Of a stretch of DNA of 12,495 bases, positions 1 through 12,495 are shown piece after piece. The DNA comes from Clostridia bacterium (lineage in GTDB: Bacteria; Bacillota; Clostridia; Christensenellales; Aristaeellaceae): NCBI GenBank assembly GCA_045599485.1, contig JAZRWA010000089.1:1-12495 (forward strand), written 5' to 3'. A program made the translations under genes and the position numbers. Below the pieces are notes generated by a model. It did not search any database, was not told where the DNA came from, and worked only from the letters and a program-made list of their open reading frames with translations. How positions within the stretch are numbered: position 1 is the first letter of the stretch; each line of letters opens with the position of its first letter.

Positions 1-1
1 T

Positions 2-766
2 GAAGATGCTCATAAGGCGGCGGGAGAAAGATTGAAGGACTATCCCGGTTTTCGACCGATTCACGGTAACTTTCATGACATAAGAGAGCTTCTGCCTGAA
101 GGCACTATGCTCGACGGCGGTCTTTTGGATCTGGGTGTTTCCTCCTATCAGATCGATACGCCCGAAAGAGGATTCTCTTATCATGAAGATGCGCCGCTGG
201 ACATGCGCATGGATCGTTCACAGGGAGTCACCGCGGCCGAATGGCTGGCGATGCAGGATGAAAAGACCATCATGAACGCACTGTATGATTACGGTGATGA
301 GAAATGGGCGGCCCGCATCGCCAAGGTGATCGTGGAAAGACGTGCAGCAAAGCCCATTCTGACCACAACGGATCTTGTCAGCTGTGTGGATGCGGCCATA
401 CCGAAGGCAGTGCGCCGTAAGGACGAAGGGCATCCGGCAAGAAGGACGTTTCAGGCGGTACGTATCGCCGTGAACGACGAGCTGGCTCCTTTGTAGCAGG
501 CGCTGAACGACTGGATGAGCATGATTCGCCCCGGCGGCAGGTTGTGTGTGATCACTTTTCATTCGATTGAAGACCGAATTGTGAAGCATGCGTTCAAGAC
601 GATGCAGAATCCCTGTATCTGTCCGCCGAAGGCTCCGATCTGCACCTGTGGGAGAAAACCAATTGCCAGGGTGATGGGCGGCGGCGCCATCAAGGCTTCT
701 GCCGAAGAATTGGAAAAGAATTCACGCGCGCACAGCGCAACGCTGCGCGTCGCCCAAAAACTGTAA
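2..766 (+). CDS. rsmH: 16S rRNA (cytosine1402-N4)-methyltransferase RsmH/MraW, 5'-truncated at the window edge; one reading frame with an in-frame TAG at 494-496
   Basis: ORFs 32-496 and 515-766 share a frame (both 2 mod 3) and the frame is open from position 2. Upstream of the TAG: [37 protein letters not shown]. Downstream: [20 protein letters not shown] and the Cys-rich CICPPKAPICTCG tail. All are typical RsmH motifs. Ends in TAA at 764-766. Confidence 0.88.
494..496 (+). other. In-frame TAG inside rsmH (candidate sense codon)
   Basis: GAG CTG GCT CCT TTG TAG CAG GCG CTG; the same frame carries conserved RsmH sequence on both sides. Confidence 0.8.
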
Positions 767-776
767 GGAGAAACGA

Positions 777-1631
777 ATGCTGTACGTTGTGGCGACACCA
801 ATCGGCAACCTTGGGGATATGACTCCTCGGGCTGTGGAAACACTGAAAAGTGTATCGCTGATTGCTGCCGAGGATACACGGGTGACCATGAAGCTGCTGC
901 AGCATTTTGGCATCAGCACTCCGATGACCAGCTGCCATCGGCACAATGAAGAGGACAAAGCCCTGGAAATTGTGCGAAGGATGCAAGAAGAGAATATCGA
1001 TGTAGCCATCGTTACGGATGCCGGTACGCCGGCGATTTCCGATCCCGGCACGCACCTGGTGCATCTGGCCGCCGAAGCGGGCATAACGGTAGTTGCTGTA
1101 CCGGGACCGACGGCTATGGCCTCTGCCGTATCGGTCTCTGGTATGGACATGACAGAGTTTACCTTTATGGGTTTTTTACCCCGTGAAAAGAAAGACCTGA
1201 AGGAAGCTCTGATTTCTGCTGCTCAAAGAACGCAGGCCATTGTGGTGCATGAATCTCCTTACCGGATCATCGATTTTATGAAGGTACTGGCAGCAACATT
1301 GCCCGAAAGCATGGTAAGTGCCAGCTGTGACCTGACGAAGCTGCACGAGTTGACTCTGCGCGGCACAGCCGAGGAAGTGCTTGCCCGCATGGAAGCCAAT
1401 GACAAAACCGAAAAGGGTGAGTATTGCCTGGTTATTGACCTGAGAAAGGTGCCTAAGGCAGAACCCGCCAAAGCGGCGGTGTCCCTGGAGGCGGCATTGC
1501 TTGAAAAGGTATTGGCAGGCCAGACTCTGCGGGACGCGGTCAGCGAGACCGTTAAAGAGGGCAACCGGAAAAATGCTGTTTATGCAGCCTCCCTGAAGAT
1601 CAAGGAAATGATCAAAGAGGAATACCTATAA
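777..1631 (+). CDS. rsmI: 16S rRNA (cytidine1402-2'-O)-methyltransferase RsmI
   Basis: The N-terminus MLYVVATPIGNLGDMTPRAVETLKSVSLIAAEDTR is the tetrapyrrole-methylase-fold RsmI signature, followed by DAGTPAISDPG. An AAGGAG RBS lies 6 nt upstream. 284 aa, TAA stop. Confidence 0.9.
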   Translation: MLYVVATPIGNLGDMTPRAVETLKSVSLIAAEDTRVTMKLLQHFGISTPMTSCHRHNEEDKALEIVRRMQEENIDVAIVTDAGTPAISDPGTHLVHLAAEAGITVVAVPGPTAMASAVSVSGMDMTEFTFMGFLPREKKDLKEALISAAQRTQAIVVHESPYRIIDFMKVLAATLPESMVSASCDLTKLHELTLRGTAEEVLARMEANDKTEKGEYCLVIDLRKVPKAEPAKAAVSLEAALLEKVLAGQTLRDAVSETVKEGNRKNAVYAASLKIKEMIKEEYL

Positions 1632-1677
1632 AGCAATAGGGACAGACAGGATTTGAAAAAGGACCGAGGTATCAAGC

Positions 1678-2451
1678 ATGATCTTCACCATGGATATTGG
1701 CAACACCAACGTGAAAGCGGGATTGTTCAATGGGACCGATTTGGTGCGTTATTGGCGGTTTTCAACGAACCGAACCTCCAGCAGCGACGAGTACGGTATT
1801 ATTGTGACCAATCTGTTTCAGAATGCCGGTCTGAGCACCAATCAGGTGTCCGGTATCATGATTTCCAGTGTGGTGCCGTCCATCAACTTTACGATTGAAC
1901 ATATGTGCAACGACTACTTTGGCATTCAGCCGAAGTTTGTTGCCCCCGGCATCAAAACGGGTATCAACATTCAATACGATAACCCGCGGGAACTGGGAAG
2001 CGACCGAATCTGCAACGCCGTGGCGGCACAGACGTATTACGGCGCCCCCTGCATTTTTATCGATTTCGGTACTGCGACGACCTTTGGTGTGGTGGATGAA
2101 AAGGAGCGCTTTATCGGCGGTTGCATCTGTCCCGGTATCAAGATCGCCAGTGAGGCACTTGTGCGCGGAACATCGAAGCTTCCCAACTTTGAACTGACAA
2201 AGCCGGAGACCGTGATTGGACGCAACACCATCACCAATCTGCAAAGCGGCATGATTTATGGCTTTGTCGGACAGGTGGAATACCTGATTCGGAAGATGAA
2301 GAAGGAAATGAACCGGGAAGATGCCCGGGTGATTGCTACCGGCGGTATGGCCCGAATGATCGCCTCTGAAACGGATTGCATCGACCAGATCGATGGCCTT
2401 CTGACCCTCAAGGGACTGAGACTGATTTACGAAAGAAACGCGGAAGCATAA
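1678..2451 (+). CDS. coaX: Type III pantothenate kinase (CoaX)
   Basis: MDIGNTNVKAGLF N-terminal phosphate-binding motif, GSDRICNAVAA, IDFGTATTF and ATGG motifs. 257 aa, TAA stop. The start could instead be ATG 1690. Confidence 0.88.
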   Translation: MIFTMDIGNTNVKAGLFNGTDLVRYWRFSTNRTSSSDEYGIIVTNLFQNAGLSTNQVSGIMISSVVPSINFTIEHMCNDYFGIQPKFVAPGIKTGINIQYDNPRELGSDRICNAVAAQTYYGAPCIFIDFGTATTFGVVDEKERFIGGCICPGIKIASEALVRGTSKLPNFELTKPETVIGRNTITNLQSGMIYGFVGQVEYLIRKMKKEMNREDARVIATGGMARMIASETDCIDQIDGLLTLKGLRLIYERNAEA

Positions 2452-2552
2452 AAATAACAGCCGATTTGCTGTACCATATCATGCAAAGCGGCGGGTTCAA
2501 ACTGCATCAGTTCTACGTATATTCTTGCATACGATGGCCGGAAAAGGGAAAA

Positions 2553-3254
2553 ATGATAAAATACGAAAGTGACCATTACATATTTAACTACAATAAAGGA
2601 ACACAGGCAGAACGGGATATTTTGACCATTGCCAAGGGGCAGGAAGACTGCTTCCGTTATATCTGCAAAGTTCTGGACGCGCAGCCTGACTTCAAAATTG
2701 AATACTTCCTCTGCGATACACCCGAAAAAGTGGGACATATTTACGGCGATGATGACCCCTGCAACGCCTTTGCGGCGCCACCAAACAAAATCTATGCAGT
2801 GTATAACGAGCAAGTGAAGTGCATCGGTTTCCATGAGGATGTTCACCTTATCAGCTATCTGATCAACCGCCCCGATCCTCCCGCCATTCGGGAAGGTTTG
2901 GCCATGTACTTTGATCGCAAGTGGTGGGGAATCCATAATCTGGATTGGTGCGGATTCTTCCTGAAAACCGAACGGTATATTTCCGTTGCAGCATTGCTGA
3001 CCAGAAAAGTGTTTTTCGAGACGGACTGTACCATATGCTATCCGATCATGGGAGCCTTTACGGATTATCTGATTGCAACCTATGGTCATGCAGCCTATCT
3101 GGAAATGTATAAGCAGCAGGATATTCCGCAGGCCATGAAGGCAGTATTCGGTAAATCTCCGGAGGAATTGAACGCAGAATTTATCGGCTATGTGAAGCTG
3201 TTCCGCATTGACCCGGAACTGGAAAAGCGGATGGAAGAATTGTTTTGCCAGTAA
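2553..3254 (+). CDS. Hypothetical protein with an HExxH motif, possibly peptidase-MA-like (gluzincin-type)
   Basis: ORF 2376-3254; I place the start at ATG 2553, preceded by AAGGGA. It contains FHEDVH (HExxH), followed about 19 residues later by REGLAMYF, which resembles the third-ligand Glu segment of Peptidase_MA_2-type proteins. No signal peptide is evident. TAA stop. Confidence 0.5.
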   Translation: MIKYESDHYIFNYNKGTQAERDILTIAKGQEDCFRYICKVLDAQPDFKIEYFLCDTPEKVGHIYGDDDPCNAFAAPPNKIYAVYNEQVKCIGFHEDVHLISYLINRPDPPAIREGLAMYFDRKWWGIHNLDWCGFFLKTERYISVAALLTRKVFFETDCTICYPIMGAFTDYLIATYGHAAYLEMYKQQDIPQAMKAVFGKSPEELNAEFIGYVKLFRIDPELEKRMEELFCQ

Positions 3255-3348
3255 AAATGCAAGCAGTTCAACTTTGGTGAGCGCCAAAGCAAGAACACAA
3301 GCATCACTTGATGTAATCAAAAAAGCAGATGCTTCCTATAGAGTACAA

Positions 3349-3391
3349 AACAAGCAATGCACAATCCGGATAGGATCGAGCATTGCTTGTT
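3349..3391. terminator. Candidate bidirectional terminator hairpin between convergent genes
   Basis: Perfect 12-bp stem: aacaagcaatgc (3349-3360) pairs with gcattgcttgtt (3380-3391). The loop is 19 nt. It is flanked by TTTATTT on the plus strand and TTTTGT on the minus strand, and sits between the plus-strand stop at 3254 and the minus-strand stop at 3464. Confidence 0.5.
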
Positions 3392-3463
3392 TATTTACCG
3401 CTCGTTTAGCAGATACCGATTATTCGTTTTATCAAGAGTTCACTAAACGGTTGCTGCTTTTGA

Positions 3464-4771
3464 TTATCGGCGTAATCCCTTCGGATAATGGTTTTTGATC
3501 AGGTCATCGGAGATTTTACCGAAGCCAAGAGTATAGCCCTGCAGGGAAACGGTGCAATAGCCTTTTAGCGTTCCGTTGTAAGGAATGGCATCGCCGTGGA
3601 TATAAGCCGCTGCTTCCGCTTCGGTGAGGGCAATTTCCTTTTTGCTTCTTTCTGCTAAAGCCAAAGCGTGATTTGGAACAAAATTCTTGCCCTTGAGTTC
3701 ACCCACATGAAACCCTGCACGGAGGACCTTGATTCCCTTCAGATCGGGGATGATGGCAGGGATGAGCGTAAGCTGATTGCCGAAAAGAGCGTTGGGCATC
3801 AACTCATAGCCAAGTTCGTCCATAAAAGATTTGACAGGCGGAAGGCTGCGTTGATCGGGAGCAGGCAATGTGCCATAAGCTGACGCAAATTTATCAGAAT
3901 CGATGTTCTTTTGAAGAAGGGCAATAAAATGGCCCTCTCCGCGGATTTTGTGCGGCCAGAGATGCAGCATGCCATCCGAAGAATCAGCTGTCTACGGCAA
4001 GGAAAATGGCACCAATGAGAAATCGGGATGACGGGTAAGAAACGCTGTAATGGATTGATCGTTTTCGAGGGTATTGAAAGTGCAGGTGCTGTACACCAAG
4101 GTGCCGCCGGGTTTAAGCATATCGGCTGCGGCATCCAGGATACCGGCCTGTCGTTCGGCACAGTGAGCGGGGGAAGCTTCCGACCATTCCAAACGAGCCT
4201 GCGGATCCTTGCGGAACATGCCTTCTCCGGAACAGGGTGCATCGACAAGGATGCGGTCAAAGAAATAGGTCCATTTCAATCGGAGCTGATCGGGATATGC
4301 GGAAGTTACGATACAGTTTTCGATCCCCATGCGTTCAATGTTGGAGGAGAGAATCTGAGCACGAGACGGAATAGGCTCATTGGATACGAGCAGAGCGGGG
4401 TGAAAGGACATGGCTATTTGCGTGGATTTTCCACCGGGTGCGGCACAAAGATCCAGCACAGTATCGGTGGGCTTTGGGGCGAGTACAGCAGCGGCAGCCA
4501 TAGCGGATGGTTCCTGAATGTAATAAGCCCCTGCATCATGAAGGATCGTAGCTCCGGCGCGTGATGTGTTGGCCAGATAATATGCATGGGGAACATAAGG
4601 AATCTTTCCGATAAGATCTTCGGAAGGCATAGGAGTGCGGTCGTCCCGGAAGCGGATACCGCGGGTGTGCGGATCGAGATACGTTTTCAGGAAGGCTTCG
4701 GTTTCGTTTCCAAGCTGGGTACGGATGTTTTCAATAAAAAGAGGAGGTAACGCATGCAGTGTATCACTCAT
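3464..4771 (-). CDS. RsmB/RsmF (NOL1/NOP2/Sun) family rRNA m5C methyltransferase with an RsmF-type C-terminal domain; in-frame TAG at 3992-3994
   Basis: ORFs 3992-4801 and 3464-3970 share a frame, with 7 sense codons (TADSSDG) between them. The N-terminal part has LDLCAAPGGKS (SAM motif I), DAPCSGEGMFRKDP (motif IV) and YSTCT (motif VI). After the TAG comes LHLWPHKIRGEGHFIALLQK, typical of the RsmF C-terminal domain. I chose the start at 4771 (MSDTLH) because GGAGGT lies upstream. TAA stop. 435 codons in total. Confidence 0.8.
3992..3994 (-). other. In-frame TAG inside the RsmF-like methyltransferase gene (candidate sense codon)
   Basis: Minus strand TTG CCG TAG ACA GCT; the catalytic domain lies upstream and the RsmF C-terminal domain downstream in the same frame. 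Confidence 0.8.
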
Positions 4772-4797
4772 TTTGTTACCTCCGTAAAATGATTTGA

Positions 4798-5274
4798 TCA
4801 TGTGTTGGAATCGGAATAAATCTTGCTGCGATAACGGCGAACGGGGACTTCGGTTTGCGGAGGCAGTATCTGATCCTGCTGCTCGGGAGCATCATTGGAA
4901 GAAGCATCTGATGGAAGCTCATTCTGCTGATACAGATCGGCAACGCCTGTCTCGTTAAAGGAATAGCCGCTGATGCCGTCGGTATATCCGCCTTGAAAAC
5001 CGCCTTGATAGAAGGCATCGTCATAGGCGGAGGCAGACGGAATTTCACGATGAGGTTTGCCAATCAGAAAGGGACGCCAACGCAGCACATAGACAGTCAG
5101 GTCTGCCGCACAGCCAAGCAGCAGCAACAGGAGAAATGCGACAAACCAGTAACGGTTCAGCCACGACAGAAACGAACCGGAACCGCTGCCGCTGAATGCT
5201 TGCAGTAACTCCTGAAAGAAACTGCGCAGCCAGCCGAGCAGAGAAGAAATTAAAGAAGTGGCAAATCTGTTCAT
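4798..5274 (-). CDS. Hypothetical small membrane protein
   Basis: 158-aa ORF with one clear hydrophobic helix (YWFVAFLLLLLLGCAADLTVYVL) and a low-complexity G/Q/S-rich tail. It is tightly packed between cdaR (stop 5277) and the RsmF-like gene. TGA stop. I recognise no family. Confidence 0.55.
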   Translation of the reverse strand: MNRFATSLISSLLGWLRSFFQELLQAFSGSGSGSFLSWLNRYWFVAFLLLLLLGCAADLTVYVLRWRPFLIGKPHREIPSASAYDDAFYQGGFQGGYTDGISGYSFNETGVADLYQQNELPSDASSNDAPEQQDQILPPQTEVPVRRYRSKIYSDSNT

Positions 5275-5276
5275 GG

Positions 5277-6317
5277 TTATTCGTTGGAGACGATTTCAAT
5301 CGTGACAGTCAGGGAATCGGCGCTGCAGTAGATGACGCCGGTTGGTTTGCTGAGGGTGACATTTTTCTGGAAGGAAGCGGTGGCGCCGCTGATGTCGATT
5401 TGACTTTCGATATACTCGATCAGATGCAGTTCATCCAGGGAATTGAGCAGTTTTTCGTTTGCGGCGAAAAGAACGGAAGAGGGTTCCACTGTGATACGCT
5501 TGAGCGCATAGCCTTCAGCCGGCTGACCACAGGTGAGGTCGGCGGTGTTGATGACCAGCGATTTGGTGGGATAGATCGTTTGCTCAACAATCAGGCTGTC
5601 CAGCAGGACCGACTCGGAAGTGACCTCGATGAGGGCAGAATCAACGGTGCTCTGGTCGGAGGAGATCAAACGGAAGGGAACAGCAGTGCGCTCGTTTCCG
5701 GAAGAACCGCTCAAAAGGGACAAGTCATAATCGGCAACACAGCGGATGATATTACGTACACGGGAAAGCGGACCGGAGACCGTAACATAGAGCGGGTCAA
5801 CGGCGGCGGAGGTGGCATACATTCCTTCGGGCAGTTGACCGCTGGTCTCAAGGCGCACAGGAATACGGCTGCGGGTGACATACTCGTCCACCTGCAGGGT
5901 GACGGTGCCGATGCTGACTTCCGTGACCGTTCCATAGGTGGAGGAATTGGTGGAGAGAATGTTGAGAGTTTGCGTACCGGTGCCGCGAATTCTGGACAGA
6001 TCAATACGGACATTGAAGTTGGAGGCCGAGACGGTGTTGTAGACATTCTGCGGTACTTCTGCTTTGAGGCGGATAAGCGGCAGATTGTCGAGACCATCGA
6101 CAACGATATAGCCGTTGCGGCGGAGCGTATCGGAGCCGATGATGTTGATGCTCACATCGTTGAAGGTTTTTTCACGGGTCAGAGAGCTGTCGGCGGTGAT
6201 GAGACCGCTCCACAGGCAGACGGCAAGCAGAAGGGACAAAAGCTTCCACGGCCAGTTGTGGATTAAAAACTGAAGAGCCTGCTTCAAATACGGCTTTGGT
6301 TCAAATGTCTTTTTCAT
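5277..6317 (-). CDS. cdaR: YbbR-domain protein CdaR (regulator of the diadenylate cyclase CdaA)
   Basis: Lies immediately downstream of cdaA. It has an N-terminal TM helix (WKLLSLLLAVCLW) followed by repeated beta-rich YbbR-like modules (patterns of the form VxVxGxxxxL ... DLS). I place the start at ATG 6317 (MKKTFEPKP) with a GGGAGA RBS. TAA stop. Confidence 0.78.
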   Translation of the reverse strand: MKKTFEPKPYLKQALQFLIHNWPWKLLSLLLAVCLWSGLITADSSLTREKTFNDVSINIIGSDTLRRNGYIVVDGLDNLPLIRLKAEVPQNVYNTVSASNFNVRIDLSRIRGTGTQTLNILSTNSSTYGTVTEVSIGTVTLQVDEYVTRSRIPVRLETSGQLPEGMYATSAAVDPLYVTVSGPLSRVRNIIRCVADYDLSLLSGSSGNERTAVPFRLISSDQSTVDSALIEVTSESVLLDSLIVEQTIYPTKSLVINTADLTCGQPAEGYALKRITVEPSSVLFAANEKLLNSLDELHLIEYIESQIDISGATASFQKNVTLSKPTGVIYCSADSLTVTIEIVSNE

Positions 6318-7140
6318 GCTTCTATCTCCCTTTGAACCATTTGAAGGCGGCGGAAACGGGGGAAGGTTTTTTGCTGCGATACATGCCGTGGAGAATGTTT
6401 TCCAGTGAGGCACTATCAAGATGACGAGTCAGTTTTCCGTTGTGAGCGGTACTGATGATGCCGGTTTCCTCACTGACGATCAGCACAATGGCATCGGTGG
6501 TTTCGGAAACACCGAGCGCAGCGCGATGCCGGGTGCCGAGATCACGGCTGATGGAGCTGGATTCACTGAGGGTGAGGAAGCAGGCACCGGCGATGATGCG
6601 TGTATCACGGATAATGACCGCGCCATCGTGCAAGGGGGTGTTGGGTTCAAAGATGTTTTCCAACAGGGGAGCAGAAATGACGCTGTCCAACCGGGTACCG
6701 GTCTCGATGATCTCTTTTAAGCCGGTCTGCTGTTCAAAGACGATGAGCGCACCGACACGGCGGCGTGAAAGGTTGTTGAGGCAAAGGATGATTTCACTGA
6801 CGATGCGGGCGTTTTCTTCTTCGTCATTGAGAAAATGACGAAATTTGGTGCCGCGGCCAACCTGCTCGAGAATGCGGCGCAATTCGGGCTGAAAGAGGAT
6901 AACAAGTGCGACAGCACCGTTGCTGACGATCAGGTTCATGACCCAGGACAGCGCAGTCAACCCAAGCATGTTGGAAACCAGACAGGCAAGCAAAAGCACG
7001 ATGAGACCCTTGACAACTTCACTGGCGCGGGTGCCGCGAACAAGCATCAGGAGCTCATAGATCAAAAAAGAAACGACGATTATATCAAAAATGTCAGTCA
7101 GAGACGGACGATTAAAAATGTTCCAAAGAAAGTTTTGCAT
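6301..7140 (-). CDS. cdaA: Diadenylate cyclase CdaA (DacA); a TAG at 6322-6324 lies six codons before a TGA at 6301-6303
   Basis: Three N-terminal TM helices plus a DAC domain with DGAVII, GTRHRAALGVSETTDA and VSEETGIIS. Under the standard code the CDS is 6322-7140. With TAG as sense it gains KHEKDI and ends at TGA, overlapping the cdaR start. Confidence 0.88.
6322..6324 (-). other. TAG near the end of cdaA (either a stop or a sense codon followed by a 6-codon tail)
   Basis: Minus strand GGG AGA TAG AAG CAT GAA AAA GAC ATT TGA. Confidence 0.45.
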
Positions 7141-7192
7141 CTGAGCATTAACGCCGGTAACCGGACGACCTCTCTTTCCGCAGACTGCTTTT

Positions 7193-7220
7193 ATTATAGC
7201 AGAAAATAAAGTCTGATTAA
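7193..7220 (-). promoter_or_regulatory. Candidate sigma-A promoter for the cdaA operon (extended -10)
   Basis: On the minus strand there is TGcTATAAT, a perfect -10 (7198-7193) with a TGn extension. A weak -35, TTAATC (7220-7215), lies 16 nt upstream. The element is about 50 nt upstream of the cdaA ATG and downstream of the preceding terminator. Confidence 0.5.
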
Positions 7221-7253
7221 AGAGGATATGCGGACAACAGCAAAAAAAAACTT

Positions 7254-7279
7254 ACAAAAAAATCCCGCCGAAGCGGGAT
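7254..7279 (-). terminator. Rho-independent terminator of the PrsA-like lipoprotein gene
   Basis: On the minus strand: ATCCCGC-TTCG-GCGGGAT, a 7-bp GC-rich stem (7279-7262) with a tetraloop, followed by TTTTTTTGTAAGTTTTTTTTT. It starts 15 nt after the TGA at 7295-7297. Confidence 0.85.
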
Positions 7280-7294
7280 GGTAAGAAACGTAAA

Positions 7295-8371
7295 TCAGTT
7301 GAGACGATCGAGATAAGTGGTGACCTTGGCGGCGGAGATCCATTCATTGACCGCTGCATTGTAGGCAGCATCCTGCGCCGCGGCGAGCATTGAATCGGAA
7401 AGCTGAGTACGGGCGAAGTCCAGATCGGCCGTGGCTTCAGCAACATCGTCCACATACTGCACGAGCACAGCCGCGTTTTCGGTCTCCACCACGGGGGAGA
7501 CAGTCCCCCTCTCGGTAAGAGCCATGGCGGCGTTCACAATGGCTGCGTTCACATCGGTGCTGCCATTGGTGACGACATAGGAAACGGGAGCATCGGACAA
7601 AGCATCGAAGGATTCGCCGGCGGCAACACGTGCAGCCAGTGCATCGGCATCCTCTTTGGCAACGGAAATGACCTTGATGCTGCGGTAACCGGCGGGGGTG
7701 TAATAGGTGAGCTCACCTGCGTTGGCGGCTTTGCCGTACGCGGCGGGGTCAGCTTCGTAGGCGGCCTTTTCGGCGGCAACTTTTTCATCAAGGGCGGCCT
7801 GCAGATCAACATCGCTGACGGTCACGTTTTCGGTTACTGCAGCCTTGAGCAGGTTAAGGGACTTGGTGCCCTTGACAGTTGTGAGGTAATAATCAAGCGT
7901 ATAGCCGCTCTGATCAGCTGTGGTCTTGACGGCTTTGTCGAGGGCTTCACCGGTCAGCTCGGAGGAGGCAAAATCGCTGGCTTTGATGGATTCGAGCATG
8001 GAATCATAGGAAGCCTGCGCCTCGGCCGCGATGGCGGCTTCATCTTCGGCAGAGAACTGATCGAAGCCTTTTTCGCTGATCTTCTGAGCCAGTACCATGC
8101 TCTGAATGAAACCGCTTACGGTCTCGTTCAGCACAGCGGTCTCGTCAACGGTGCCGTCGCCGCCAAGCTGAGACATCAGCTGGGCGTAGTAGGATTCGAC
8201 ATAATAGTTATAGTTATACTGATAGTTGAATTCGTTCTTGGTGACGATTTCGCCGTTGACTTCCAGAATGGTCTGCATGCCATCCACAACACTGTCGATT
8301 TTTTCGAGAGAGCAACCGGAGAGCAGAACCAGAGCCGCAAGTACGACGGCAAGCAACATTTTCTTGTTCAT
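7295..8371 (-). CDS. PrsA/SurA-like lipoprotein (foldase/chaperone-like; SurA N-terminal-type domain)
   Basis: MNKKMLLAVVLAALVLLSGCS is a signal peptide with the lipobox LSGC. The body is Ala/Glu-rich and helical with a parvulin-like central segment (YYTPAGYRSIKVISV). I place the start at ATG 8371. TGA stop. Confidence 0.65.
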   Translation of the reverse strand: MNKKMLLAVVLAALVLLSGCSLEKIDSVVDGMQTILEVNGEIVTKNEFNYQYNYNYYVESYYAQLMSQLGGDGTVDETAVLNETVSGFIQSMVLAQKISEKGFDQFSAEDEAAIAAEAQASYDSMLESIKASDFASSELTGEALDKAVKTTADQSGYTLDYYLTTVKGTKSLNLLKAAVTENVTVSDVDLQAALDEKVAAEKAAYEADPAAYGKAANAGELTYYTPAGYRSIKVISVAKEDADALAARVAAGESFDALSDAPVSYVVTNGSTDVNAAIVNAAMALTERGTVSPVVETENAAVLVQYVDDVAEATADLDFARTQLSDSMLAAAQDAAYNAAVNEWISAAKVTTYLDRLN

Positions 8372-8405
8372 GTTACATGTACTCCAATCTGTGATTTGCG
8401 TGTTT

Positions 8406-8434
8406 ATTATAGTTGATTCGGAAGAGCATATCAA
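8406..8434 (-). promoter_or_regulatory. Candidate sigma-A promoter for the lipoprotein gene
   Basis: On the minus strand: TTGATA (8434-8429), a 17-nt spacer, then TATAAT (8411-8406). It lies about 35 nt upstream of ATG 8371. Confidence 0.5.
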
Positions 8435-9321
8435 GATAATTTTTTGTGAACATATTCGCGCAGCAGACCATCACAGTTGGTTCGTTCGGAAACGATCAGC
8501 TATGACAGGTGGAGGAAGTCCATCACTGCGCAAAGGATTGCAAGCCCGGTTGGGAGAATGTTGCCGCGTCCCTTCGGGCAGCCGGGAATCATTTCACGTT
8601 CCAAAGGCGTGAGAGGAGCGATCTGCGTCAGAAGCTGCCTTACCTGGTCGCGGTGAAGATGAACTCCTTCAGCAGCATCGGTACGGGCAATCATCCTTGC
8701 GGATGCCGTTCCGGTGCCACCGACAAGGTATACGGCAGAACCCGCAGGAAAGGAGGCGGGCACAGAGGGCTCGTTCATGATGATATTACGCGCAGCCGCA
8801 AGGGCTTTTTGGACATCGGCGGCTTCGTGGATCGGGCAGACTGAAAATAGCCGGGAAGCTCCCAACTGCAGAGAAAGACATCGGGGGTGCATGTCGGTAT
8901 CGTAGTAAGCCAGTTCGGTGGATCCGCCGCCGATATCGATCACGGCACCGGGGGCATACCCTGCTGATCCGAGCAGGGAAAAACGGGCTTCTTCCGCACC
9001 GGAGATGATCTGGAGAGGGAGCCCGCAGGCAGAAAAAATGGCGTGGGCGAGAGCATCGGAGTTTTCGGCGTCGCGGACAGCGCTTGTGGCGTAAACACCA
9101 ATCAACACGGAATGCTCCTGCGCGGCGATGGCTTGAAGACGACGGATATCCTCCGCGGTTTGCTCAATCGTTTCCTGCGGAAAACGGCGGCTTTGGCTCA
9201 AATGAAGGAAGAGACGGGATTCGATACGATGACGGGTTGGATTGCTGAGGGAAGTGTCGGTATCCGCGCAGAGCATACGCGCCGAATTGGAACCGATAAC
9301 GATGACGGCGATCCTGTTCAT
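8431..9321 (-). CDS. Ppx/GppA-family phosphatase (exopolyphosphatase / pppGpp phosphohydrolase-like); in-frame TAG at 8500-8502
   Basis: IGSNSARM and DIGGGSTEL are ASKHA-fold phosphate-binding motifs. ORF 8500-9321 stops at TAG, and the frame then continues for 22 codons (LIVSERTNCDGLLREYVHKKLS) to TGA at 8431-8433. This gives a typical length of about 296 aa and a GLLxE-like domain end. Confidence 0.78.
8500..8502 (-). other. In-frame TAG inside the ppx/gppA-like gene (candidate sense codon)
   Basis: Minus strand CTG TCA TAG CTG ATC, followed by 22 further sense codons and then TGA. Confidence 0.7.
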
Positions 9322-9671
9322 AGCTGATCACTTTCTACGACATACATTTCAACCGTCTGCGTGCTGTCGCCAAGCGCCTACGGGTTGGCGATGATAAAAC
9401 GAATTTCTCCGGGAACACTGTAACCATACATTTCACGGGCTTTGGTCATGATGTATTCGGTGGTCTGCAGGATGGAGACCTCGGCGGAAAGCTGACGGGC
9501 TTCCAGCGTTTGTTTCGCGCTGCGCTATTGTAGCGACGCGTATTCCTGCTGCATGGCGGCGGAGTCGCGGTGGACGCGGATGATCATGAGCAAGCCGATG
9601 GCAAAAATGACAGACAGAACACAGACTGCGAAAAGCGGAGATACGGTTTTTTGTTTCAGTCGTTCGGCCAT
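9318..9671 (-). CDS. Septum formation initiator (FtsB/DivIC family) protein; two in-frame TAGs at 9525-9527 and 9378-9380
   Basis: Absent from the ORF track because the TAGs cut it into pieces shorter than 60 aa. My manual translation is MAERLKQKTVSPLFAVCVLSVIFAIGLLMIIRVHRDSAAMQQEYASLQ-TAG-RSAKQTLEARQLSAEVSILQTTEYIMTKAREMYGYSVPGEIRFIIANP-TAG-ALGDSTQTVEMYVVESDQL-TGA. It has the expected TM helix, coiled coil and ARExxGYxxPGE motif. A GGAGGA RBS precedes ATG 9671. The TGA overlaps the ppx ATG as ATGA. Confidence 0.65.
9378..9380 (-). other. Second TAG in the divIC/ftsB-like gene (a stop under the standard code; if sense, a 19-codon tail follows)
   Basis: Minus strand AAC CCG TAG GCG CTT; the frame stays open to a TGA that forms an ATGA overlap with the ppx start. 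Confidence 0.5.
9525..9527 (-). other. In-frame TAG inside the divIC/ftsB-like coiled coil (candidate sense codon)
   Basis: Minus strand CTA CAA TAG CGC AGC; the conserved ARExxGYxxPGE motif lies downstream in the same frame. Confidence 0.75.
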
Positions 9672-9698
9672 AGATTCCTCCGGAAGGGATAGAAAGCC

Positions 9699-10193
9699 TT
9701 ATTCATGGACGGTTTCGGCTTCTTCAAAATCGGGATCGGCAGGGGGGAGCTTGTCGCATACCATGAAGAGGGCATCTTCACCGTTGTCCTCGTAATATTT
9801 TTTTCGTACTCCTACCTGAATGAAGCCCAGAGAGGTGTATACATGCTGTGCGGTCAGATTACTGCGCCGTACCTCAAGCGTCATATAAACCACGCCGAGA
9901 TTGGCGGCGTACTGAATGAGCGCGGCTGTCAGCTGCTTGCCGAAACCGTGGCCGCGGTATTCCTCTTTGATGGCAATGTTGGTGATATGGCCTTCGTCAA
10001 TCACGACCCAAACGCCGGCAAAGCCGATGATGTTTCCATCAAGCTCAGCAACCAGATAGCGTGCACAGGCGTTGCGCGTCATCTCGTCTTGAAAAGAACG
10101 GAGCGACCAGGGCATCGCAAACGTAGCGGCCTCGATCGCCTGAACGGCTTCACAATCCTCATAAGTCATGCGGCGGATGGTAATGTCACTCAT
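9699..10193 (-). CDS. rimI: Ribosomal-protein-alanine N-acetyltransferase RimI (GNAT)
   Basis: GNAT fold with the acetyl-CoA motif RGHGFGKQL. It sits in the conserved tsaE-tsaB-rimI arrangement and overlaps the tsaB stop by 8 nt. TAA stop. Confidence 0.82.
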   Translation of the reverse strand: MSDITIRRMTYEDCEAVQAIEAATFAMPWSLRSFQDEMTRNACARYLVAELDGNIIGFAGVWVVIDEGHITNIAIKEEYRGHGFGKQLTAALIQYAANLGVVYMTLEVRRSNLTAQHVYTSLGFIQVGVRKKYYEDNGEDALFMVCDKLPPADPDFEEAETVHE

Positions 10194-10881
10194 GCTTCAT
10201 GGCCTCCCGGGCGGCACGCTCCCGCTCTGCCTGCGGCGGACGCAGATAGACAGGCTGCAGGGAAAGATAATCAACGGCTTCATCAGCATGCCGCAAGGCA
10301 AGGGAAGCGGATGCGGCGGAGCGCAGATAGGTGTTCTGCATCGAAGCGAAAAGAGCCTTTTTACCAAACAGTTCCGTCAGTCTTTCATGATAAGCGACAG
10401 CACCGTCTCCGGTGAACAGGAAGGGGCCGCCAAAGGTGCGGACCAGATCGGCATATTCCTCCAGTTTCATGGCACTGTCGGGCATCAGTCGTTCACCGTT
10501 CAGGAAGGCAGCACCGTATACCTGTCCGACACGTGCATCCTGCAGGGGGCAGATCATCATACCGGGAGCATCGATACCGCAGGCGGTGACTTCGAGCGAA
10601 GAGAGGGCAAGGCAGGGAAGATTGAGCGCATGTGCCATGGCTTTGACGGCGGAAACGCCGATGCGGATGCCGGTAAAGGAACCGGGCCCTGCGGTTACCG
10701 CCAGCAGATTGAGCTGCTGAAGCGTAACGCCGGAGCGGCAAAGTGCCTCTTCGACCATGGGCATAATGCTTTCGGAGTGCTTCAGCTGATTGGCGGCGCA
10801 GGCTTCGTAACGGATGCGGTTTTCATCAGCGACGGCAACAGAGGCAACAGGACCGGAAGTATCAAGAGCGAGAACGATCAT
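10186..10881 (-). CDS. tsaB: tRNA t6A37 biosynthesis protein TsaB (YeaZ)
   Basis: MIVLALDTSG and TAGPGSFTGIRIGVSAVKAMA motifs. The ATG at 10881 overlaps the tsaE TGA (ATGA). TGA stop. Confidence 0.88.
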   Translation of the reverse strand: MIVLALDTSGPVASVAVADENRIRYEACAANQLKHSESIMPMVEEALCRSGVTLQQLNLLAVTAGPGSFTGIRIGVSAVKAMAHALNLPCLALSSLEVTACGIDAPGMMICPLQDARVGQVYGAAFLNGERLMPDSAMKLEEYADLVRTFGGPFLFTGDGAVAYHERLTELFGKKALFASMQNTYLRSAASASLALRHADEAVDYLSLQPVYLRPPQAERERAAREAMKHE

Positions 10882-11312
10882 GCGTGTAACTCCTCCCATC
10901 TGCCGCGAGGCAGGAAGGTGATTTCCCGCCGGGAATCATCCAGCGGTCGGATGGAAATTTCAAGACAGGTTTCGGGAATGAGATAACCGGCACGTTCATG
11001 CCATTCGATCAGGGCGATGCCATCACCGCCGAGGTATTCATCCAGCCCCATATCGGTCAGTTCACTGGGGTCGCCGATGCGATACCAGTCGAAATGATAA
11101 AGCGGTACACGTCCTTCTTCATACACGTTCATGATGGTGAAGCTCGGGCTGGGAACGGCACAGGTAATGCCGAGACCGCGGGCGATGCCTCGGGCCAGTT
11201 CGCTCTTCCCTGCTCCAAGGTCGCCTGTCAGCAGAATGACATCGCCGGCATGCAGGGAGGTGGTGAGCGCGGTGCCAAGAGCCTGGGTTTCTTCTCTTGA
11301 GGTTGTGATCAT
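10878..11312 (-). CDS. tsaE: tRNA t6A37 biosynthesis ATPase TsaE (YjeE)
   Basis: Walker A GDLGAGKS, then SPSFTIMNVY and HFDWYR motifs. 144 aa, TGA stop. Confidence 0.9.
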   Translation of the reverse strand: MITTSREETQALGTALTTSLHAGDVILLTGDLGAGKSELARGIARGLGITCAVPSPSFTIMNVYEEGRVPLYHFDWYRIGDPSELTDMGLDEYLGGDGIALIEWHERAGYLIPETCLEISIRPLDDSRREITFLPRGRWEELHA

Positions 11313-11324
11313 GCAGATGAATCC

Positions 11325-12077
11325 TTATTCGCCCGGGAACATTTGGGCGAGACCTTTCTGAATACCGGTATCCCAGAACCACCAGTCATGGACGCCGTCC
11401 CACTCCTCGTAGCTGCAGGGAATGTTTTTGGTATGGAAAAAATCATGGAGCTTGCGGGACATGCGGAGCAATCCGTCCTCGGTACCGCAGGCCATATAGA
11501 GCTTTGGCAGCTTCTTTCCTCCCGCAAGGGCTTTTTCGGTGAGCTTTTCGATGTCGTTTTCTTCACCGAAGGGCAGTTCGGGACCGAGAATGGCCCTCCA
11601 TTCATCCTGCTATGAACCTGCGACATCGTCGCGCCAAAGGCTGCGATCCATGGGATAGAAGCAGGAAGAGAGAGCGATGCATCCGGCATATTTATCCGGG
11701 GCTGTGGCGACACATTTCATGGCACCATAACCGCCCATGGAAAGACCGCCGATATACAGGTGCTCGGGATCGGTCGGAATGCGGAATTCCGCGGCCATCT
11801 TGGCGGGAAGCTCTTCAAAAACATAAGTGAAGTATTTAAGACCGTAGGCCATATCGATGTACCAGGAACGCTGCACCTACGGCATGACGACAGCAAGACG
11901 ATATTTATCAGTCAGACGACCGATGGCAGTACGGCGGACCCAGGCATCGCAGTTATCACTGAGACCATGCAGCAAAAGAAGGGTACGCTCAGGTGCGGCA
12001 TGGTCGGGAAGAAGAACATTGACGTGTGTATACATGGACAGACTGTCTGCCCGAATGGTTCCGTGATAAAAAGACAT
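11325..12077 (-). CDS. Esterase-family alpha/beta hydrolase (esterase D / tributyrin esterase-like); two in-frame TAGs at 11877-11879 and 11610-11612
   Basis: Three contiguous same-frame segments. Segment 1: MSFYHG...LLLLHGLSDN...AVVMP. Segment 2: VQRSWYIDM...GGLSMGGYGA, containing the GxSxG nucleophile. Segment 3 is my manual translation: QDEWRAILGPELPFGEENDIEKLTEKALAGGKKLPKLYMACGTEDGLLRMSRKLHDFFHTKNIPCSYEEWDGVHDWWFWDTGIQKGLAQMFPGE, carrying the candidate catalytic Asp and His. A GAGGTG RBS precedes ATG 12077. TAA stop at 11325-11327. Confidence 0.8.
11610..11612 (-). other. Second in-frame TAG inside the esterase gene (candidate sense codon)
   Basis: Minus strand GGT TCA TAG CAG GAT; the candidate catalytic Asp and His segments lie downstream in the same frame. 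Confidence 0.8.
11877..11879 (-). other. In-frame TAG inside the esterase gene (candidate sense codon)
   Basis: Minus strand ATG CCG TAG GTG CAG; it lies within the conserved VVMP-x-xxRSWYxDM block. Confidence 0.8.
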
Positions 12078-12129
12078 GGTATTCACCTCTGCCTGACAAT
12101 TTGATGATCGATCCTGTCCGGCTCCTCTA

Positions 12130-12158
12130 ATTGTAGAGAAACAAGGGGAGAATGTCAA
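12130..12158 (-). promoter_or_regulatory. Candidate sigma-A promoter for the esterase-tsaE-tsaB-rimI operon
   Basis: On the minus strand: TTGACA (12158-12153), a 17-nt spacer, then TACAAT (12135-12130), with A/T-rich sequence upstream. It lies about 50 nt upstream of ATG 12077. Confidence 0.6.
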
Positions 12159-12198
12159 TCAAAAATTGCTTTGGGTGAATACCATGCCGTGGGTAAGA

Positions 12199-12495
12199 TC
12201 AGGTTGAAATGTGAATGCGGCTTTGACGGTCGCGGGAGGGGAGAAGGATGATCTCTCCGTTCGAAAGGGTTTGCGGTATATCGATGAGCCGTTGATTGGA
12301 GGAGCCGCGGAACCAAAGGGAAGGATCCTTCAGGGCTTCGACATAACGACCATCTACCAAAACATTCAGCAGGGATAAAAGCGCGTCCGTGACCTCGGTG
12401 CGGGCGTGATGGCCTTCCGTGTGGAGCTGTTCCCATGTAAAGCCCGTATAGCACCAGACATCCTTCTGCGGGAAAGCGGCGCGTACTTTTTGCAC
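12199..12495 (-). CDS. nrdG: Anaerobic ribonucleoside-triphosphate reductase activating protein NrdG, C-terminal part (5' end outside the window)
   Basis: DVWCYTGFTWEQL, LLNVLVDGRYV and FRGSSNQRLID match the NrdG C-terminal region. TGA stop at 12199-12201. The leading M in the ORF track is an artefact of the window edge. Confidence 0.78.
   Translation of the reverse strand: MQKVRAAFPQKDVWCYTGFTWEQLHTEGHHARTEVTDALLSLLNVLVDGRYVEALKDPSLWFRGSSNQRLIDIPQTLSNGEIILLPSRDRQSRIHIST

Follow-up and report, generated by a model that had tools for sequence, protein, structure and literature searches.

Whether an in-frame TAG codon within an otherwise conserved gene ends translation or is read as an amino acid was the question raised by the 16S rRNA methyltransferase gene rsmH of a Clostridia bacterium (GenBank assembly GCA_045599485.1). 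This gene lies at one end of contig JAZRWA010000089.1, of which positions 1 to 12,495, in nucleotides (nt), were analysed and are referred to here as the window. On the evidence of its sequence, the window is chromosomal DNA of an uncultured Christensenellales-like species of the Clostridia. A first-pass annotation had reported that rsmH was bisected by one TAG, that the conserved FHSxEDR block was 3′ of this codon and that the TAG was opposite the Glu preceding QAL in Escherichia coli RsmH; seven further TAG sites were counted, and decoding as Glu or a similar polar residue was offered as a weak hint. The comparisons described here indicate that TAG is very probably a sense codon for Glu in this lineage.

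In-frame TAG codons of rsmH and the window

A single in-frame TAG was present in rsmH, in frame 2 of the + strand, and the reading frame closed with TAA (Table 1). The Methyltransf_5 domain (PF01795) spanned this TAG without a break, covering residues 3 to 253 and positions 56 to 308 of the 309 in the model (E value, 1.4e-85; 288 bits). The match to the RsmH/MraW family was full length and included the C-terminal FHSxEDR block, which was found after the TAG as FHSIEDR and aligned with FHSLEDR of the PDB homologues. A gap-free alignment with E. coli RsmH (PDB 3TKA) placed the TAG opposite Glu in VNSELEEI-E-QAL, in agreement with the first-pass annotation; the same column contains Lys in T. thermophilus and T. 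maritima and Tyr in human METTL15. Two intact 309-amino-acid RsmH proteins (P0001 and P0002), 96% and 95% identical to that of the window, had Glu, encoded by GAA, at the TAG column. In an alignment of orthologues, which the earlier annotation had proposed, the 118 RsmH homologues closest to that of the window among those using the standard code included 90 with E in this column. Two further possibilities raised at that stage were separately expressed half-genes in close relatives and an indel or frame change at the TAG; the relatives carry an intact rsmH, and the alignment has a one-to-one residue column. No obvious GGAGG-type ribosome-binding site was seen by eye before the next ATG (position 515) after the TAG. 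TAG itself was absent from this column in all 160 relatives outside the clade described below. From these alignments, the rsmH TAG most likely functions as a Glu codon that arose in the window species from GAA or GAG, and RsmH would be made at full length with Glu at the TAG position.

In order to place this codon in the context of the surrounding genes, the window was read again with only TAA and TGA as stops, resulting in 16 genes. The + strand contained rsmH, rsmI, coaX and an orphan open reading frame (ORF), while the − strand contained rsmF, a gene for a small membrane protein, cdaR, cdaA, a gene for a PpiC/SurA-like lipoprotein, ppx/gppA, a divIC-like gene, rimI, tsaB, tsaE, an esterase gene (est) and the end of nrdG. 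The terminators were TAA for eight genes and TGA for the other eight; none was TAG. Eight in-frame TAGs were located in six Pfam-verified genes, namely, rsmH, rsmF, cdaA, ppx, the divIC-like gene (two) and the esterase gene (two). The seven sites other than that of rsmH, all of which were recovered as previously counted, were on the − strand. A Pfam family match was present on both sides of the TAG in every interrupted gene, and no in-frame TAA or TGA was found inside any gene of the window. As a rough estimate, random nonsense mutation would generate eight TAGs out of eight with a probability of (1/3)^8, or 1.5e-4. TAG would account for 8 of the 246 putative Glu codons of the window (∼3%).

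Table 1. Coordinates of genes and in-frame TAG codons in the window
Feature	Position	Strand	Description
rsmH (16S rRNA m4C1402 methyltransferase)	2..766	+	5′-truncated by the window edge; terminator TAA at 764-766
rsmH in-frame TAG	494..496	+	Codon 165 of the window fragment; GAA (Glu) in sister species
rsmI	777..1631	+	No TAG; terminator TAA
rsmF (16S rRNA m5C1407 methyltransferase type)	3464..4771	-	Four Pfam domains; terminator TAA
rsmF in-frame TAG	3992..3994	-	Codon 260; common to window and sister species
cdaA (diadenylate cyclase)	6301..7140	-	Pfam DAC and CdaA_N; terminator TGA if TAG is read through
cdaA in-frame TAG	6322..6324	-	Codon 273, seven codons before TGA; common to sister species
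ppx/gppA-family phosphatase	8431..9321	-	PF02541 at residues 30-292 as one stretch; terminator TGA
ppx in-frame TAG	8500..8502	-	Codon 274; in all clade members
divIC-like septum-formation initiator gene	9318..9671	-	PF04977 at residues 21-96, across the first TAG; terminator TGA
divIC in-frame TAG	9525..9527	-	Codon 49; TAG in window and L161, CAG (Gln) in L168 and L169
divIC in-frame TAG	9378..9380	-	Codon 98; in all clade members
rimI	9699..10193	-	No TAG in window
tsaB	10186..10899	-	No TAG in window
tsaE	10878..11312	-	No TAG in window
Esterase-family alpha/beta hydrolase	11325..12077	-	PF00756; terminator TAA
Esterase in-frame TAG	11877..11879	-	Codon 67, inside motif MP-E-VQRSWY; in all clade members
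Esterase in-frame TAG	11610..11612	-	Codon 156; GAG or GAA in sister contigs

Conservation and exchange of TAG codons between sister species

Protein searches with RsmH (reaching P0001 and P0002), the esterase and Ppx led to sister-group contigs from seven other public samples (L161/L170, a single 14,162-bp Logan contig; L162 to L166; and L168 and L169). These contigs had ∼87% nucleotide identity to the window and 92 to 100% identity to one another. L161/L170 was the only contig that covered the whole region, and its gene order was the same as that of the window. The sister contigs contained their own in-frame TAGs, some at the positions seen in the window and others at different positions, giving a total for the clade of 15 TAG sites in nine genes. 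No gene on these contigs ended in TAG. Due to their in-frame TAGs, the gene calls made on them with the standard bacterial code (code 11) were fragmented (RsmF, 259 amino acids; CdaA, 107; Ppx, 192 plus 71; TsaB, 140). The gene located 5′ of rsmH in the sister species was the 3′ end of valS and not mraZ (positions 1 to 1303 of L161 and 1 to 1419 of L162); no TAG was present in the 433 to 472 codons of this valS fragment.

Comparison of the window with L161 encompassed 3,676 aligned orthologous codons. Six TAGs were common to the two species (rsmF260, cdaA273, ppx274, divIC49, divIC98 and est67, each named for the gene and codon), having been retained at synonymous divergences (dS) of ∼0.3 to 0.9. 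Seven sites had TAG in one species only, and at six of these the partner was GAA or GAG. The window had the TAG at rsmH165 (GAA in the sister) and est156 (GAG or GAA), while the sister had it at rsmF279, rimI37 and tsaB147 (GAG in the window) and at cdaA108 (GAA). TAG was found in the sister at 4 of the 238 Glu codons of the window and at none of its 116 Gln codons. Variation was also detected within the sister group, whose contigs were 92 to 98% identical where TAG alternated with GAG at rimI37 and with CAG at nrdG37. Codon 37 of rimI was TAG in L161 and GAG in L163 and L168, contigs with which L161 had 97% and 92% identity, respectively, in the overlaps. The rimI37 difference looks like a synonymous-type polymorphism, and it appears from these sequences that the gain or loss of TAG codons continues among populations or very close species.

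The ratio of non-synonymous to synonymous substitutions (dN/dS, NG86) was calculated for the window and the sister contig on either side of the TAGs. Values 3′ of the first TAG ranged from 0.010 to 0.164 in eight genes, with 0.021 to 0.205 upstream; those for rsmH were 0.023 before the TAG and 0.010 after it. Purifying selection was, by this measure, the same on both sides. These ratios bear on the proposal that TAG is still a stop, with the interrupted genes being pseudogenes, separately expressed half-genes or subject to occasional readthrough in a decaying genome. Truncated products are indeed annotated in public records under code 11 (P0250, P0241 and P0121), as this proposal would have it, and the cdaA TAG is only seven codons from the end of its gene. 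The low dN/dS downstream of the TAGs, however, speaks against this proposal. In addition, TAG accounted for all 8 in-frame stops of the window and all 15 clade sites, six TAGs were kept between species, one of them inside the invariant MPEVQRSWY motif, and rsmH combined the lack of a start signal after its TAG with an intact sister gene. Retention of TAG as a stop was, therefore, judged to be very improbable.

The cdaA TAG was examined further. Reading it as sense makes cdaA seven codons longer and generates a 17-nt overlap with the start of cdaR (position 6317); the TAG lies directly after the Shine-Dalgarno-like GGGAGA of cdaR. In standard-code relatives, the CdaA proteins run on past column 273, with K, L and L at this position. 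Of all the TAGs, only this one could, from its location, serve as a terminator as well with no obvious harm.

Decoding at individual sites by a signal-dependent mechanism, such as elements similar to selenocysteine or pyrrolysine insertion sequences (SECIS- or PYLIS-like) or programmed readthrough, was considered and rejected. The 60 nt after TAGs had a mean minimum free energy of −12.6 kcal/mol, compared to −13.2 kcal/mol after ordinary Glu codons, and no common context or +4 base was found in the bases flanking the TAGs. As there was no excess of structure and the TAG positions shift between close relatives, a local recoding signal was not indicated. Bypass of the single codon was also rejected, since MPEVQRSWY would then lose its invariant Glu. 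Decoding is, on these comparisons, a property of the TAG codon itself.

An artefact of sequencing, assembly or contamination was considered as a further source of the TAGs. GAG to TAG is the classic transversion of oxidative damage, and contaminating ciliate or phage contigs have given false stop codon reassignments before (PMC8629427). The same TAG positions were, however, seen repeatedly in at least eight samples, which had been assembled independently and with different assemblers, and several of the partner codons are GAA, which is two changes away from TAG and cannot be explained by G-to-T damage. A contig from a eukaryote with recoded UAA and UAG (UAR) is contradicted by the use of TAA as a terminator, and the content and order of the genes (valS-rsmH-rsmI-coaX ... 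cdaA-cdaR ... tsaE-tsaB-rimI) are those of bacterial housekeeping loci. No meaningful phage or plasmid similarity of the window was found. An origin from a phage using code 15 was rejected because of this lack of phage similarity, the chromosomal housekeeping content and the absence of Q from conserved columns (0 of 119 and 0 of 150; see below). An artefact is accordingly regarded as extremely improbable, the least probable of the alternatives. In a separate observation, matches to Klebsiella and Enterobacter plasmids (H5-H9) were detected for positions 113 to 961 of the window; conjugative enterobacterial plasmids have a copy of rsmH beside rmtG, a 16S methyltransferase gene for aminoglycoside resistance, and these matches are unrelated to the TAG finding.

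The distribution of the trait was investigated with RsmH scans of species-representative genomes and metagenome contigs. The relatives recovered by these scans were all Christensenellales or "Clostridia bacterium" metagenome-assembled genomes (MAGs) from rumen or gut with no more than 82% identity. TAG was the terminator in 8 of 80 rsmH and 10 of 72 rsmI orthologues outside the clade, indicating that these relatives use the standard code. The trait was, therefore, limited to a clade of two species-level lineages, represented by at least eight samples and sharing six TAG sites; in relatives with RsmH identities not exceeding 82%, TAG is a stop. Christensenellales MAGs also contained the rsmH-rsmI pair, accompanied in a few relatives by a neighbouring rsmF or cdaA. 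Three crude screens for recoding in 160 related loci (counts of internal stops in long ORFs, BLAST of all TAG-containing ORFs against one another and greedy ORF calls) were uninformative, as TAG is also present in antisense and out-of-frame ORFs that are conserved in these GC-rich sequences; recoding was judged instead by comparing codons orthologue by orthologue. The nearest standard-looking esterase homologue (64% identity) was on an 18-kb contig (L167; GCA_045639455.1, JAZUDA010000275.1). None of the 17 genes called on this contig had a TAG terminator or an internal TAG, for which the chance is ∼0.08 at 14% TAG stops; this absence could be noise or a depletion of TAG preceding capture.

The amino acid assigned to TAG

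In order to determine which amino acid was indicated by each site, the columns homologous to the TAGs were examined in the respective protein families. E was almost invariant in the two most constrained columns, being the residue of 115 of the 119 homologues at est67 (MP-E-VQRSWY) and of 147 of the 150 representatives at rsmF279 (RG-E-GHF); Q was not found in either. The est67 TAG was observed in L163 to L166 and in the full L161 contig, while rsmF279 is the site with TAG in the sister and GAG in the window. At ppx274, E ranked first (31 of 117) and Q second (19). E was also present at est156 in the two nearest standard-code homologues and, among PDB homologues, at cdaA108 in Bacillus subtilis CdaA and at tsaB147 in E. 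coli and Salmonella TsaB. Summing log2-odds over seven columns, in a simple Codetta-like calculation, gave +10.9 for E, with Q (−8.4) and S (−9.2) ranking next. The homologous columns agreed on Glu apart from rsmF260, ppx72 and two sites with CAG partners, and sites other than rsmH thus arrived independently at the residue first suggested from rsmH.

Several observations limit the assignment of TAG to Glu or do not fit it. Among 160 wider relatives, the rsmH column was divided between E (81), D (38), S (14) and R (12); by itself, this column is only moderately informative, and the strength of the assignment comes from combining sites. The TAG of rsmF260, which is present in both species, aligned, within a gap-rich loop, with a column where Gly predominates (LP-G-LPE; G in 97 of 115), and at ppx72 the partner of the sister TAG is GTG (Val) in the window. 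Pairs of TAG and CAG (Gln) were observed between near-identical strains at divIC49 and at nrdG37, the latter being TAG in L170 and CAG in L164, with Asp at that position in PflA. Scans of the window and of all clade contigs detected no tRNA gene. The absence of TAG terminators from 16 genes is weakly informative, having a chance of ∼0.11 at the ∼13% TAG stops of the relatives. Finally, the support for Glu is entirely comparative.

The CAG partners have an additional significance, as they would be synonymous if TAG encoded Gln. TAG could then be read as Gln, as in phage code 15, or as a mixture of Glu and Gln, through a CUA suppressor derived from tRNA-Gln that was charged with Glu and wholly or partly amidated by GatCAB. 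Many Clostridia make Gln-tRNA by an indirect pathway, and Q was the second commonest residue at ppx72 as well as at ppx274, all of which would fit with this alternative. If TAG were Gln, CAG-to-TAG changes would be synonymous transitions and CAG partners should, therefore, dominate; GAA or GAG partners outnumbered them by 6 to 2, despite C to T being the easier mutation. The lack of Q in the near-invariant est67 and rsmF279 columns, the distribution of sister TAGs over Glu and not Gln codons of the window and the negative sum for Q also speak against a reading as Gln; this alternative, the mixture of Glu and Gln included, was considered unlikely. E-to-Q replacements numbered 3 among the 307 amino acid differences between the window and the sister, and the CAG partners are readily explained, at the level of these alignments, as ordinary replacements of this type.

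Pyrrolysine (Pyl) was the other candidate residue, TAG being the codon used for it and the low density of TAG over housekeeping genes resembling that of the archaea with Code 34 (bioRxiv 10.1101/2024.09.30.615893), of which this lineage would be a genome-wide bacterial counterpart. The TAGs observed here exchange with GAA and GAG and occur in invariant Glu columns, as opposed to Lys-like or freely variable positions, and K was far below E in the column sum. Furthermore, in bacteria Pyl is known only from a small number of methylamine methyltransferases and a single serine dehydratase (bioRxiv 10.1101/2024.09.30.615893). Genome-wide Pyl was, therefore, thought to have very little probability.

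Two features of the window are of a different nature. Genes for methyltransferases acting on the 16S decoding centre (rsmH, rsmI and rsmF) and genes for t6A (tsaB and tsaE) share this one 12.5-kb region, probably by coincidence; rsmH and rsmF carry TAG codons themselves. The segment from position 2461 to 3446 has a low GC content (∼44 to 46% compared to 52.5% for the window) and could not be aligned to the sister contig, where a different 131-amino-acid ORF is located. The orphan ORF within this segment (positions 2553 to 3254) has no TAG and ends in TAA. Relatives of its protein with at least 90% identity were encoded by an unrelated standard-code contig (L171; GC content, 46.5%) among acetyltransferase, APH and NUDIX genes, and this ORF looks like a horizontally acquired accessory gene.

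Proposed mechanism, relation to known codes and implications

The comparisons show UAG to be translated throughout this lineage, at positions with the behaviour of Glu codons, and a mechanism is proposed for its decoding. UAG would be read by a dedicated tRNA with the anticodon CUA that is charged with Glu. The source of this tRNA would probably be a duplicated tRNA-Glu or else a tRNA accepted by a glutamyl-tRNA synthetase (GluRS) tolerant of anticodon changes. A change of anticodon from UUC to CUA would alter positions that bacterial GluRS normally reads; hence, a relaxed or duplicated GluRS, or tRNA identity residing in the acceptor and D-arm, is predicted. Release factor 1 (RF1) may have been lost or become blind to UAG, leaving RF2 to terminate all genes at UAA and UGA. 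A single G-to-T change, equivalent to a synonymous mutation, would then turn GAG into a new TAG. The combination of tRNA(CUA) and RF1 loss is inferred by analogy with genetic code tables 4 and 25, ciliates, Blastocrithidia and engineered RF1-free E. coli. A CUA tRNA was not found in scans of the window, the clade contigs and ∼65 related loci.

Taken together, the results make it likely that a genus-level, gut- or rumen-type clade of the Christensenellales has a natural bacterial code of 62 sense codons, UAG being translated as Glu via tRNA(CUA) and RF1 being dispensable. It would be the first case of UAG reassigned on the chromosome of a bacterium and of a stop codon changed to Glu outside eukaryotes, and it would be recent, with GAG and TAG still segregating within a species. 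According to Shulgina and Eddy (PMC8629427), all known changes of stop codons in bacterial codes involve UGA. Three bacterial codes are still counted in preprints of 2024 to 2026, in which UAG reassignment is confined to phages (Gln), archaea (Pyl) and eukaryotes. Targeted literature searches found no published bacterial reassignment of UAG and no UAG-to-Glu change in bacteria. The class of mechanism is that of known stop captures; what is new is the combination of UAG, Glu and a bacterial chromosome.

The closest parallels are tables 4 and 25. Table 4 (UGA to Trp) is used by the Mycoplasmatales, some symbionts and the Eggerthellaceae (the last according to PMC13462651), and table 25 (UGA to Gly) by the Absconditabacteria and Gracilibacteria. 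Both are chromosome-wide captures of a stop in a bacterial clade, with in-frame stops in housekeeping genes and retention of the other two stops, and both are due to a cognate tRNA together with loss of the matching release factor. The present case differs in that the codon is UAG and not UGA, the amino acid is Glu and RF1, rather than RF2, would be the dispensable factor. Furthermore, the clade is narrow (approximately genus level), and the genome has a normal GC content (52.5%), being neither reduced nor AT rich.

Other codes share individual features. Phage code 15 (TAG to Gln), described for crAss-like and Lak phages (PMC9523058; bioRxiv 10.1101/2021.08.26.457843), involves the same codon in prokaryotic translation. 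That code, however, operates mainly in late genes, with suppressor tRNAs of the phage, standard-code hosts and Gln as the amino acid, whereas here the codons are in chromosomal housekeeping genes and point to Glu. Archaeal Code 34 (bioRxiv 10.1101/2024.09.30.615893) is similar in having sense TAGs at low density throughout the genome, with two stops left, and in being easily missed, as coding density under table 11 is not noticeably lower. It differs in being archaeal, in the use of Pyl via pyrrolysyl-tRNA synthetase (PylRS) and tRNA-Pyl and in retention of the release factor; here, a bacterium is involved, and the amino acid appears to be a standard one. Peritrich ciliates have a nuclear code in which UAR specifies Glu. 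UAR also encodes Glu in Blastocrithidia (PMC12153298), giving the same amino acid for UAG, through cognate tRNA-Glu species with altered anticodons. These eukaryotic codes are nuclear and include a change of UAA and a modified eukaryotic release factor (eRF1), whereas UAA still terminates 8 of the 16 genes here. Engineered E. coli strains lacking UAG codons and RF1 (PMC6207430 and PMC11903333) have the same end state as that proposed here, with UAG assignable via a CUA tRNA; those strains are man-made, while this lineage would have reached this state naturally.

An immediate consequence concerns public records. Code-11 annotation by NCBI, ENA and Logan truncates or splits proteins of this clade (P0250, P0241, P0121, P0251 and P0252), which makes its database entries wrong in a systematic manner throughout. 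Ppx, for example, is annotated at 273, 198 or 192 amino acids, that of the window being a 273-amino-acid product at NCBI that ends at the TAG (P0250), and the esterase is split into pieces of 88 and 175 amino acids (P0241 and P0121), that of the window being likewise truncated at NCBI (P0241). Detection of alternative codes by coding density would miss this lineage.

The code change would be young, as indicated by standard-code relatives at ∼80% RsmH identity, the small proportion of TAG among Glu codons (∼3%) and the GAG/TAG polymorphism. A young case would be useful for investigating the start of stop codon capture, including whether RF1 is lost before or after the tRNA is gained and how GluRS comes to accept CUA. 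If the assignment is true, this lineage has a new kind of natural code in a free-living bacterium of normal GC content and would be a natural counterpart of the RF1-free E. coli strains, with possible effects on phage resistance and on barriers to gene transfer.

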